A DNA stretch of 64,000 bases, from NCBI RefSeq assembly GCF_003334305.1, contig NZ_QOWS01000022.1; one strand, 5' to 3'. Shown one piece after another: positions 38,818 to 39,060 of the stretch (its first letter is position 1; every line of letters starts with the position of its first letter). This stretch comes from Escherichia coli. Lineage in GTDB: Bacteria; Pseudomonadota; Gammaproteobacteria; Enterobacterales; Enterobacteriaceae. The translations under genes were made by a program, and so were the position numbers. The notes beneath the pieces were generated by a model. That model saw nothing but the letters and a program-made list of their open reading frames with translations, ran no database searches and was not told where the DNA came from.

Positions 38818-39060
38818 TTACTGGGTACTGGTGGTCGTGGTTGTGGTGGTCCCGGTATTAGAACCATCACCGCCACCGGTTGCCGCGAGCGCGACACCCA
38901 CCGCCGAGCTTACGGTGCTGACGCTGGTCGCGGAGGAACTCCCCGCCGAAACCGACGTTGCTGCCGACCCTGCCGCTTCGCCCACCTGTACAGGTGCAGC
39001 CCACGCAGAAGTCGCCGCAAGCGCAGATATGGCAAAAATGCCATACAGAACTTTTTTCAT
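38818..39060 (-). CDS. yjbE: secreted Ala/Ser/Thr-rich low-complexity protein (GfcA-like)
   Basis: 80 aa: signal peptide [21 protein letters not shown] then low-complexity tail ending [12 protein letters not shown]. Confidence 0.8.

Follow-up and report, generated by a model that had tools for sequence, protein, structure and literature searches.

A conserved threonine-rich tail in YjbE, the small protein that heads the yjbEFGH exopolysaccharide operon of Escherichia coli

The gene yjbE is already known, annotated and published. The operon yjbEFGH is activated by RcsA-RcsB and is needed for an exopolysaccharide that differs from colanic acid and whose structure is undefined (PMC5461412); its disruption perturbs the envelope and activates Rcs (PMC8117528). 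At the level of the transcript, yjbE mRNA is more stable and more abundant than yjbFGH mRNA, according to Ferrieres et al. (2007, Microbiology 153:1070) as cited in PMC8208086. The published work on yjbE that we found measured transcripts, and direct evidence of the YjbE protein was not found there.

A further point of reference is GfcA (YmcD), whose gene opens the group 4 capsule operon gfcABCDE-etp-etk and stands ahead of gfcB, gfcC and gfcD, the paralogues of yjbF, yjbG and yjbH. Larson et al. (2021) speculated that GfcA might carry O-antigen as a modification and leave the cell by way of GfcD (PMC8592465). Like YjbE, GfcA combines a signal peptide of about 21 residues ending in A-x-A before Ala-Pro with a low-complexity region rich in Thr, Gly and Ala and a hydrophobic stretch of Gly, Ala and Val; in addition, the C-terminal tail of the K-12 protein (..DSGDGGSHNTSTTTSTTR / ..GDG.S.NT.TTT.T(T)R) resembles that of YjbE, a likeness seen by eye only. 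Unlike YjbE, it has 101 residues, of which 30% are Thr, its main Thr block precedes the hydrophobic segment, which is clearly transmembrane-like, with a Kyte-Doolittle value of 2.16 against 1.24 in YjbE. Homology between the two proteins was not demonstrable by BLASTP (E=65), by Pfam (no PF11106 hit in GfcA) or by hhalign, which aligned the signal peptide alone at 69% probability. We treat GfcA as the closest analogue of YjbE, not as a demonstrated member of its family.

Here we examine yjbE in a stretch of 64,000 nucleotides from one E. coli assembly (GCF_003334305.1, contig NZ_QOWS01000022.1), hereafter the window. Our reading, which we hold to be very probably correct, is that yjbE, which opens the Rcs-activated yjbEFGH exopolysaccharide operon, encodes a small, largely disordered envelope protein, that its conserved tail, GDGSNTG followed by seven threonines (T7) and ST, is a functional motif, and that the Thr run is no switch. 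The window comes from the E. coli chromosome: 5423 of 5426 complete E. coli genomes match a 721-bp query that surrounds yjbE, several of them at 100% and with the annotation pgi / yjbE / yjbF. The gene is that of K-12, with a coding sequence 99.6-100% identical to yjbE of most sampled E. coli genomes, K-12 lineages included, and with the same flanks, namely pgi upstream and yjbF, yjbG and yjbH downstream; nothing substantive is different, and the window carries the common T7 allele. YjbE matches Pfam PF11106 along its full length (E=5.5e-33, residues 1-79 on model positions 1-79 of 79), and RefSeq names identical DNA yjbE. All four genes of the operon have their expected Pfam matches and lie on the minus strand in the order yjbE-yjbF-yjbG-yjbH, which recurs in 79 of the 80 species scanned below and in one further locus (L095). 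A spacer of 113 nt separates yjbE from yjbF, and the other genes overlap, yjbF and yjbG by 4 nt and yjbG and yjbH by 1 nt (Table 1). A preliminary description of this DNA had named the product YjbE, placed it at the head of yjbEFGH, and portrayed it as an 80-residue signal-peptide protein dominated by Ala, Ser, Thr and Gly with seven threonines near the C terminus. These statements hold. Elsewhere in the window, a gene for a 310-residue zeta-toxin family protein (43077-44009, plus strand; PF06414, E=1.8e-40) adjoins lysC and is followed, according to RefSeq, by a nucleotidyltransferase-domain gene; this segment is accessory, being present in 1550 of the 5426 complete E. coli genomes.

Table 1. 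Features in and around yjbE, in coordinates of the window
Feature	Position	Strand	Basis
yjbE coding sequence, 80 codons and TAA	38818..39060	-	ORF list, ATG start, Pfam PF11106, identical DNA annotated in RefSeq
Predicted Sec signal peptide, residues 1-21	38998..39060	-	MKK, hydrophobic core, AWA|AP; rule-based reading of the sequence
Gly/Ala/Val hydrophobic core, helix-prone, residues 47-61	38878..38922	-	Sole non-signal helix in the AlphaFold2 model, low confidence
Conserved C-terminal tail, residues 62-80	38821..38877	-	Columns G62-T79 invariant or nearly so in a 37-sequence alignment
Thr7 run, residues 71-77	38830..38850	-	ACC ACC ACA ACC ACG ACC ACC
Spurious ORF MVVVVVVP..., 82 aa	38831..39079	+	ORF list
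yjbF, lipoprotein, GTG start	38066..38704	-	Pfam PF11102, E=6.9e-63; RefSeq
yjbG, GfcC family	37332..38069	-	Pfam PF20616 and PF06251 (GfcC N- and C-terminal domains)
yjbH, outer-membrane YjbH family	35236..37332	-	Pfam PF06082, E=1.1e-270
Hairpin AUAACCACAC-UCCG-GUGUGGUUAU in the yjbE-yjbF spacer	38727..38750	-	Predicted 10-bp stem
Conserved 5' leader with two hairpins, A (39094-39112) and B (39068-39088)	39061..39125	-	Conservation in 74 distinct leader sequences; RNAalifold consensus
Probable -10 element TATACT	39120-39125	-	Conservation in 74 distinct leader sequences; promoter assignment inferred
Second conserved upstream block AATTATCCTAAAAC	39171-39184	-	Upstream conservation
Conserved TGAGGTTAATCCTA, candidate RcsAB-type box	39311..39324	-	18-sequence upstream alignment

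The composition of YjbE is extreme. Ala (17 residues), Ser (14), Thr (14) and Gly (10) account for 69% of the 80-residue precursor and for 76% of the predicted mature protein of 59 residues. With Thr at 17.5% of the protein, a run of seven is not a chance feature, and it is kept across genera. By rule-based reading, the N terminus has the properties of a Sec-exported protein cleaved by signal peptidase I: a basic n-region with two lysines, an h-region with a Kyte-Doolittle value of 2.21, and a small-x-small motif in the form of A-x-A before Ala-Pro. YjbE contains no Cys, so that it has no lipobox and is therefore not a lipoprotein; the match to Pfam LPAM_1 was not significant (E=0.53). Similarly, none of the known C-terminal sorting signals represented by NCBIfam models (PEP-CTERM, GlyGly-CTERM and others) was matched by YjbE, whose tail is devoid of a basic cluster, and a scan of YjbE, YjbF and YjbG against NCBIfam as a whole yielded no family at E <= 0.001. 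A sequence search of the PDB with YjbE found no relative. Neither the canonical 80-residue E. coli protein nor its variant with nine threonines (T9) has an exact entry in a collection of 15 billion proteins, and a word-indexed protein search with YjbE missed the canonical protein and yielded for the most part singletons that were truncated or frameshifted; low-complexity proteins of this kind may be under-represented in that collection.

An AlphaFold2 model of YjbE, built on an alignment of 37 orthologues, has a mean pLDDT of 47 and contains helices only at residues 3-20, in the signal peptide, and 47-61. Since confidence is low, the designation "disordered" is a soft conclusion. The helix at 47-61, the only one of the mature region, is located at the Gly/Ala/Val segment, and this feature is one of those that might be read in favor of a different topology, in which the cleaved protein would be a single-span protein of the inner membrane, anchored by this segment and with its Thr tail in the cytoplasm, instead of being secreted or periplasmic. 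In a 19-residue Kyte-Doolittle window, the equivalent segments of GfcA and of distant PF11106 members score 1.9-2.2, above the usual threshold of 1.6, and the RefSeq product name of GfcA is "threonine-rich inner membrane protein". In contrast, the E. coli YjbE segment scores 1.24 and has an apolar core of only about 10 residues, and the tail offers no positive-inside charge, save for a terminal Arg in some species. On balance, we regard the inner-membrane topology as somewhat unlikely for YjbE.

The same preliminary description had seen in the DNA of this region a GGT/GTG-rich simple repeat that would be prone to slippage and could phase-vary the product. Contingency loci of this sort include, for example, the tetranucleotide or homopolymer tracts of surface genes in Haemophilus and Neisseria. 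The resemblance lies in the presence of a short-period repeat within the coding region of a surface-related gene, but the tract of yjbE is imperfect, has a 3-nt unit, never shifts the frame and is essentially fixed in length in the species and across genera. Tandem Repeats Finder does report a single period-3 array (38829-38850; 7.3 copies, 78% matches), at a score of 30, which is the minimum allowed setting. Synonymous codons break up the run, in which perfect repetition extends no further than (ACC)2, that is, two units, and the remainder of yjbE contains only short two-copy repeats. Hence, a repeat exists as a weak, interrupted array and not as a clean simple repeat. Moreover, its unit equals one codon, and therefore the gain or loss of units keeps the reading frame.

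The census of alleles points in the same direction. The 243-bp coding sequence is present in 5421 of the 5426 complete E. coli genomes, with at least 99% identity in 5072. Among 60 genomes sampled from across the set, 57 have a copy of precisely that length; the three exceptions are a 249-bp copy, in which alignment places an additional ACCACA within the Thr run (T9), a 242-bp pseudogene that has lost 1 bp from GGTGGGC around codon 26, and a copy split by IS1. The latter is from strain EC25, where an IS1A element (1665-2684 of the extracted locus) interrupts the gene at about codon 26; yjbE may be a recurrent IS1 target. Across all 5421 genomes, about 5317 (~98%) have T7, 103 (1.9%) T9, and one T12. 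The T9 count is 103 by two independent ways, from the 6-nt-gap band of a 111-nt T7 query and from a 91-nt T9 query (28 + 75 genomes at >=95%). T12 is found in a single genome (NZ_CP062889.1) as a 15-nt tandem duplication, ACCACCACAACCACG, which was exposed by the T8 query and explains the lone record in the 80-90% band of the T7-query count. Synthetic T6 and T8 queries of 116-122 nt had no match at >=99% in any genome, within identity bands that would miss T6 or T8 where the background differs by at least two further SNPs. Every length variant seen (+6 and +15 nt) is in frame, and every change is an expansion. The length polymorphism among strains that had been proposed as a check on the slippage idea is thus almost nonexistent.

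For yjbE to be a contingency locus, slippage of the repeat during replication would have to switch YjbE and, via polarity, the operon on and off. Besides the period-3 array itself, what can be adduced for this are the T9 and T12 expansions, which indicate that tract length can occasionally change, and two singleton metagenome proteins whose frame shifts in or near the Thr run; however, the latter are single-contig metagenome calls that may be sequencing errors. A long perfect tract, a change of frame or promoter spacing, and frequent length polymorphism, by which contingency loci are recognized, are all lacking in yjbE. Perfect repetition ends at two units, about 98% of the genomes share one length with no T6 or T8 found, T7 is kept across genera, and the inactivating lesions seen, the 1-bp deletion in GGTGGGC and the IS1 insertion, both lie outside the run. 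Phase variation is accordingly not supported, and we consider a switch at this locus extremely improbable.

A milder version of the idea is that T7, T9 and T12 are selected variants, which adjust the function or antigenicity of YjbE without switching it off. There are indeed three in-frame alleles, and T9, in 103 genomes from many laboratories, comes in two sub-variants, one with ACG and one with ACA, the latter giving a perfect (ACCACA)3. Yet T9 is rare, and the two T9 copies that were read have a flanking SNP, TTCGAGTC, in common, which suggests common descent from one event and not recurrence. T12, being confined to one genome, could be an assembly artefact; furthermore, only expansions and only two sizes of them are seen, against a length that is fixed across genera. 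Adaptive tuning by in-frame change therefore appears very unlikely, and we return to the reading of the run as part of a conserved motif.

This reading draws on a scan with YjbF, in which each species was represented by one genome and which gave 80 loci from genera including Citrobacter, Enterobacter, Salmonella, Kosakonia, Kluyvera, Buttiauxella, Cedecea, Siccibacter and Atlantibacter. An ORF for yjbE lies just upstream of yjbF in 79 of them, with signal peptide, Shine-Dalgarno sequence and ATG intact in the same proportion of species (79/80). When these 79 species are taken together with the window, the Thr run is exactly T7 after ..GDGSNTG in 75 of the 80 sequences, and the remaining five are of a Kluyvera type, T5-S-T3. 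Nor is length wholly invariable, given the T9 allele in 1.9% of E. coli genomes and the one to three residues that some genera add after the ST of the tail. The tail is written in 57 distinct codon strings. The number of residues in a homopolymeric stretch is normally unconstrained; in YjbE it stays at seven from genus to genus even though the codons drift, which we consider the one mildly notable result of this work. That the length stays the same while synonymous positions vary points to selection on the protein and is the reverse of what a hypervariable tract would show. Over its entire length, YjbE is 73-99% identical to the protein of the window (mean 88%), whereas YjbF of the same loci goes down to 63%.

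These patterns also bear on the suspicion that the ORF is not a real protein at all, being instead a low-complexity artefact or a leader at a locus that acts as RNA. The compositional bias, the lack of both an NCBIfam model and a solved structure, the low AlphaFold2 confidence and the missing exact entry in the large protein collection would all accord with that view. On the other side, residues are conserved while synonymous sites change freely, the export and translation signals are preserved in nearly all species, a curated Pfam family exists, and the alternative frame is not conserved, so that we attach a practically negligible probability to it. The alternative frame in question is the mirror-image ORF on the opposite strand, which had been called spurious at the outset, rightly in our view. 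Its third codon positions lie opposite the third positions of yjbE, and hence (ACN)n is read as (GTN)n, that is, poly-Val, whatever the synonymous codon; moreover, yjbE is rich in GCN, ACN, GGN and TCN codons, which leaves few antisense stops on offer. In 68 of 78 other species, the frame has one to three stops inside the gene. The poly-Val ORF of the antisense strand is a side effect of the genetic code.

A profile search of 1.84 billion representative proteins gave only 36 hits. Diverged full-length relatives keep the plan of the protein: a signal peptide, G(E/D)AAG, the Gly/Ala/Val hydrophobic stretch, and a tail of the form G(D/N)GS(N/S)TG-T7-ST or a close variant of it. Seven diverged PF11106 genes were examined in their genomic context; two head operons that contain yjbF, and five are orphans that lack yjbFGH within 5 kb. 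An exclusive partnership of YjbE with YjbFGH is thereby made less likely, and the family is not bound to that machinery in every case. The orphan genes (L088, L089, L090/L091, L094 and L096) keep a Thr-rich C-terminal tail. In L090 and L091, the PF11106 gene is divergent from a gene for a 188-residue regulator of the GerE/LuxR type (4131-4697), an arrangement that recalls RcsA.

The surroundings of yjbE contain several conserved elements. In the spacer between yjbE and yjbF, the predicted fold has a z-score of -3.05 (136 nt folded), and its hairpin has a core, TAACCACAC-TYCG-GTGTGGTTA, shared without change by 13 sequences from about 10 genera, with flanks that diverge or hold insertions. The hairpin may be the stabilizer or attenuator that gives rise to the excess of yjbE mRNA over yjbFGH mRNA reported by Ferrieres et al. 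(cited in PMC8208086); it offers a plausible basis for that difference and fits the published account. Immediately past the stop codon of yjbE (~38766-38817, minus strand), E. coli and E. whittamii have an insert of about 51 nt with hairpin potential of its own, which is missing from E. coli strain EC1639 and from the other aligned genera. Several Citrobacter and Enterobacter species have instead a REP-like GC-rich insert after the conserved spacer hairpin. Some E. coli genomes have an insertion of about 72 bp between pgi and yjbF, for a span of ~793 bp as against 721 bp in the window.

The 5' leader is likewise conserved. RNAalifold finds hairpin A kept through one-sided changes and hairpin B invariant, inclusive of the Shine-Dalgarno sequence AAGGGA; because the hairpin that pairs with the Shine-Dalgarno sequence is invariant, it provides no covariation test. 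The almost invariant leader, AAATCTCCATTCATTCAATGAAGGGAAATTGTTATG, contains an inverted repeat able to pair with the Shine-Dalgarno sequence. As a single sequence, the leader folds no better than its shuffled versions (z=-0.85), and no Rfam family covers it. Further upstream, two conserved boxes, ..TTAATCCTAAAA / ..TTATCCTAAAA, lie about 140 nt apart (Table 1). The distal one matches the core positions of the RcsAB box, T.AG.....TC..A; a search upstream of yjbE with the RcsAB-box consensus found nothing at up to three mismatches, and this box has four to the full consensus. Its assignment as an RcsAB-type box is an inference from sequence resemblance. The Rfam model RF02053 (STnc430, an enterobacterial sRNA) matches 39257-39406 on the plus strand, between pgi and yjbE and opposite to both genes, with 69.1 bits, the gathering score being 47. 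Both the RcsAB-like box, in reverse complement, and the pgi terminator hairpin fall within this match, so that the conservation of the family may be due in part to them.

In summary, yjbE encodes an 80-residue precursor with a Sec-type signal peptide. The mature part, of about 59 residues and low complexity, is for the most part disordered by prediction; in it, a single short, helix-prone Gly/Ala/Val segment precedes the strictly conserved C-terminal tail ending in T7-ST(Q/R). Selection on the protein keeps the Thr run at seven, with codons drifting among ACC, ACA, ACG and ACT, and rare slippage or duplication between short ACCACC/ACCACA repeats produces in-frame expansions only (T9 and T12). 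The conserved hairpin downstream of yjbE might raise its message above that of yjbFGH and thereby supply YjbE in excess over the machinery. The tail could act as a site of recognition or modification, for instance in the attachment of an O-linked sugar or polymer, or in the docking of YjbE to another envelope component (YjbF, YjbG or YjbH, for example).

The tail is invariant in length and conserved across more than 20 enterobacterial genera, is retained in the distant PF11106 members, and is also seen in PF11106 genes without nearby yjbFGH. The specific proposal that it is a dedicated recognition or modification signal, such as the attachment site of an O-linked glycan or of the Yjb polymer itself, is one that we put forward as speculative and rather doubtful. 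If it were true, members of the YjbE family would be small proteins on which surface polysaccharide is primed or anchored, a role of the kind that Larson et al. speculated about for GfcA. The tail is the part of YjbE most worth mutating, and it bears on the role of GfcA and YjbE in export systems of the GfcBCD/YjbFGH type.
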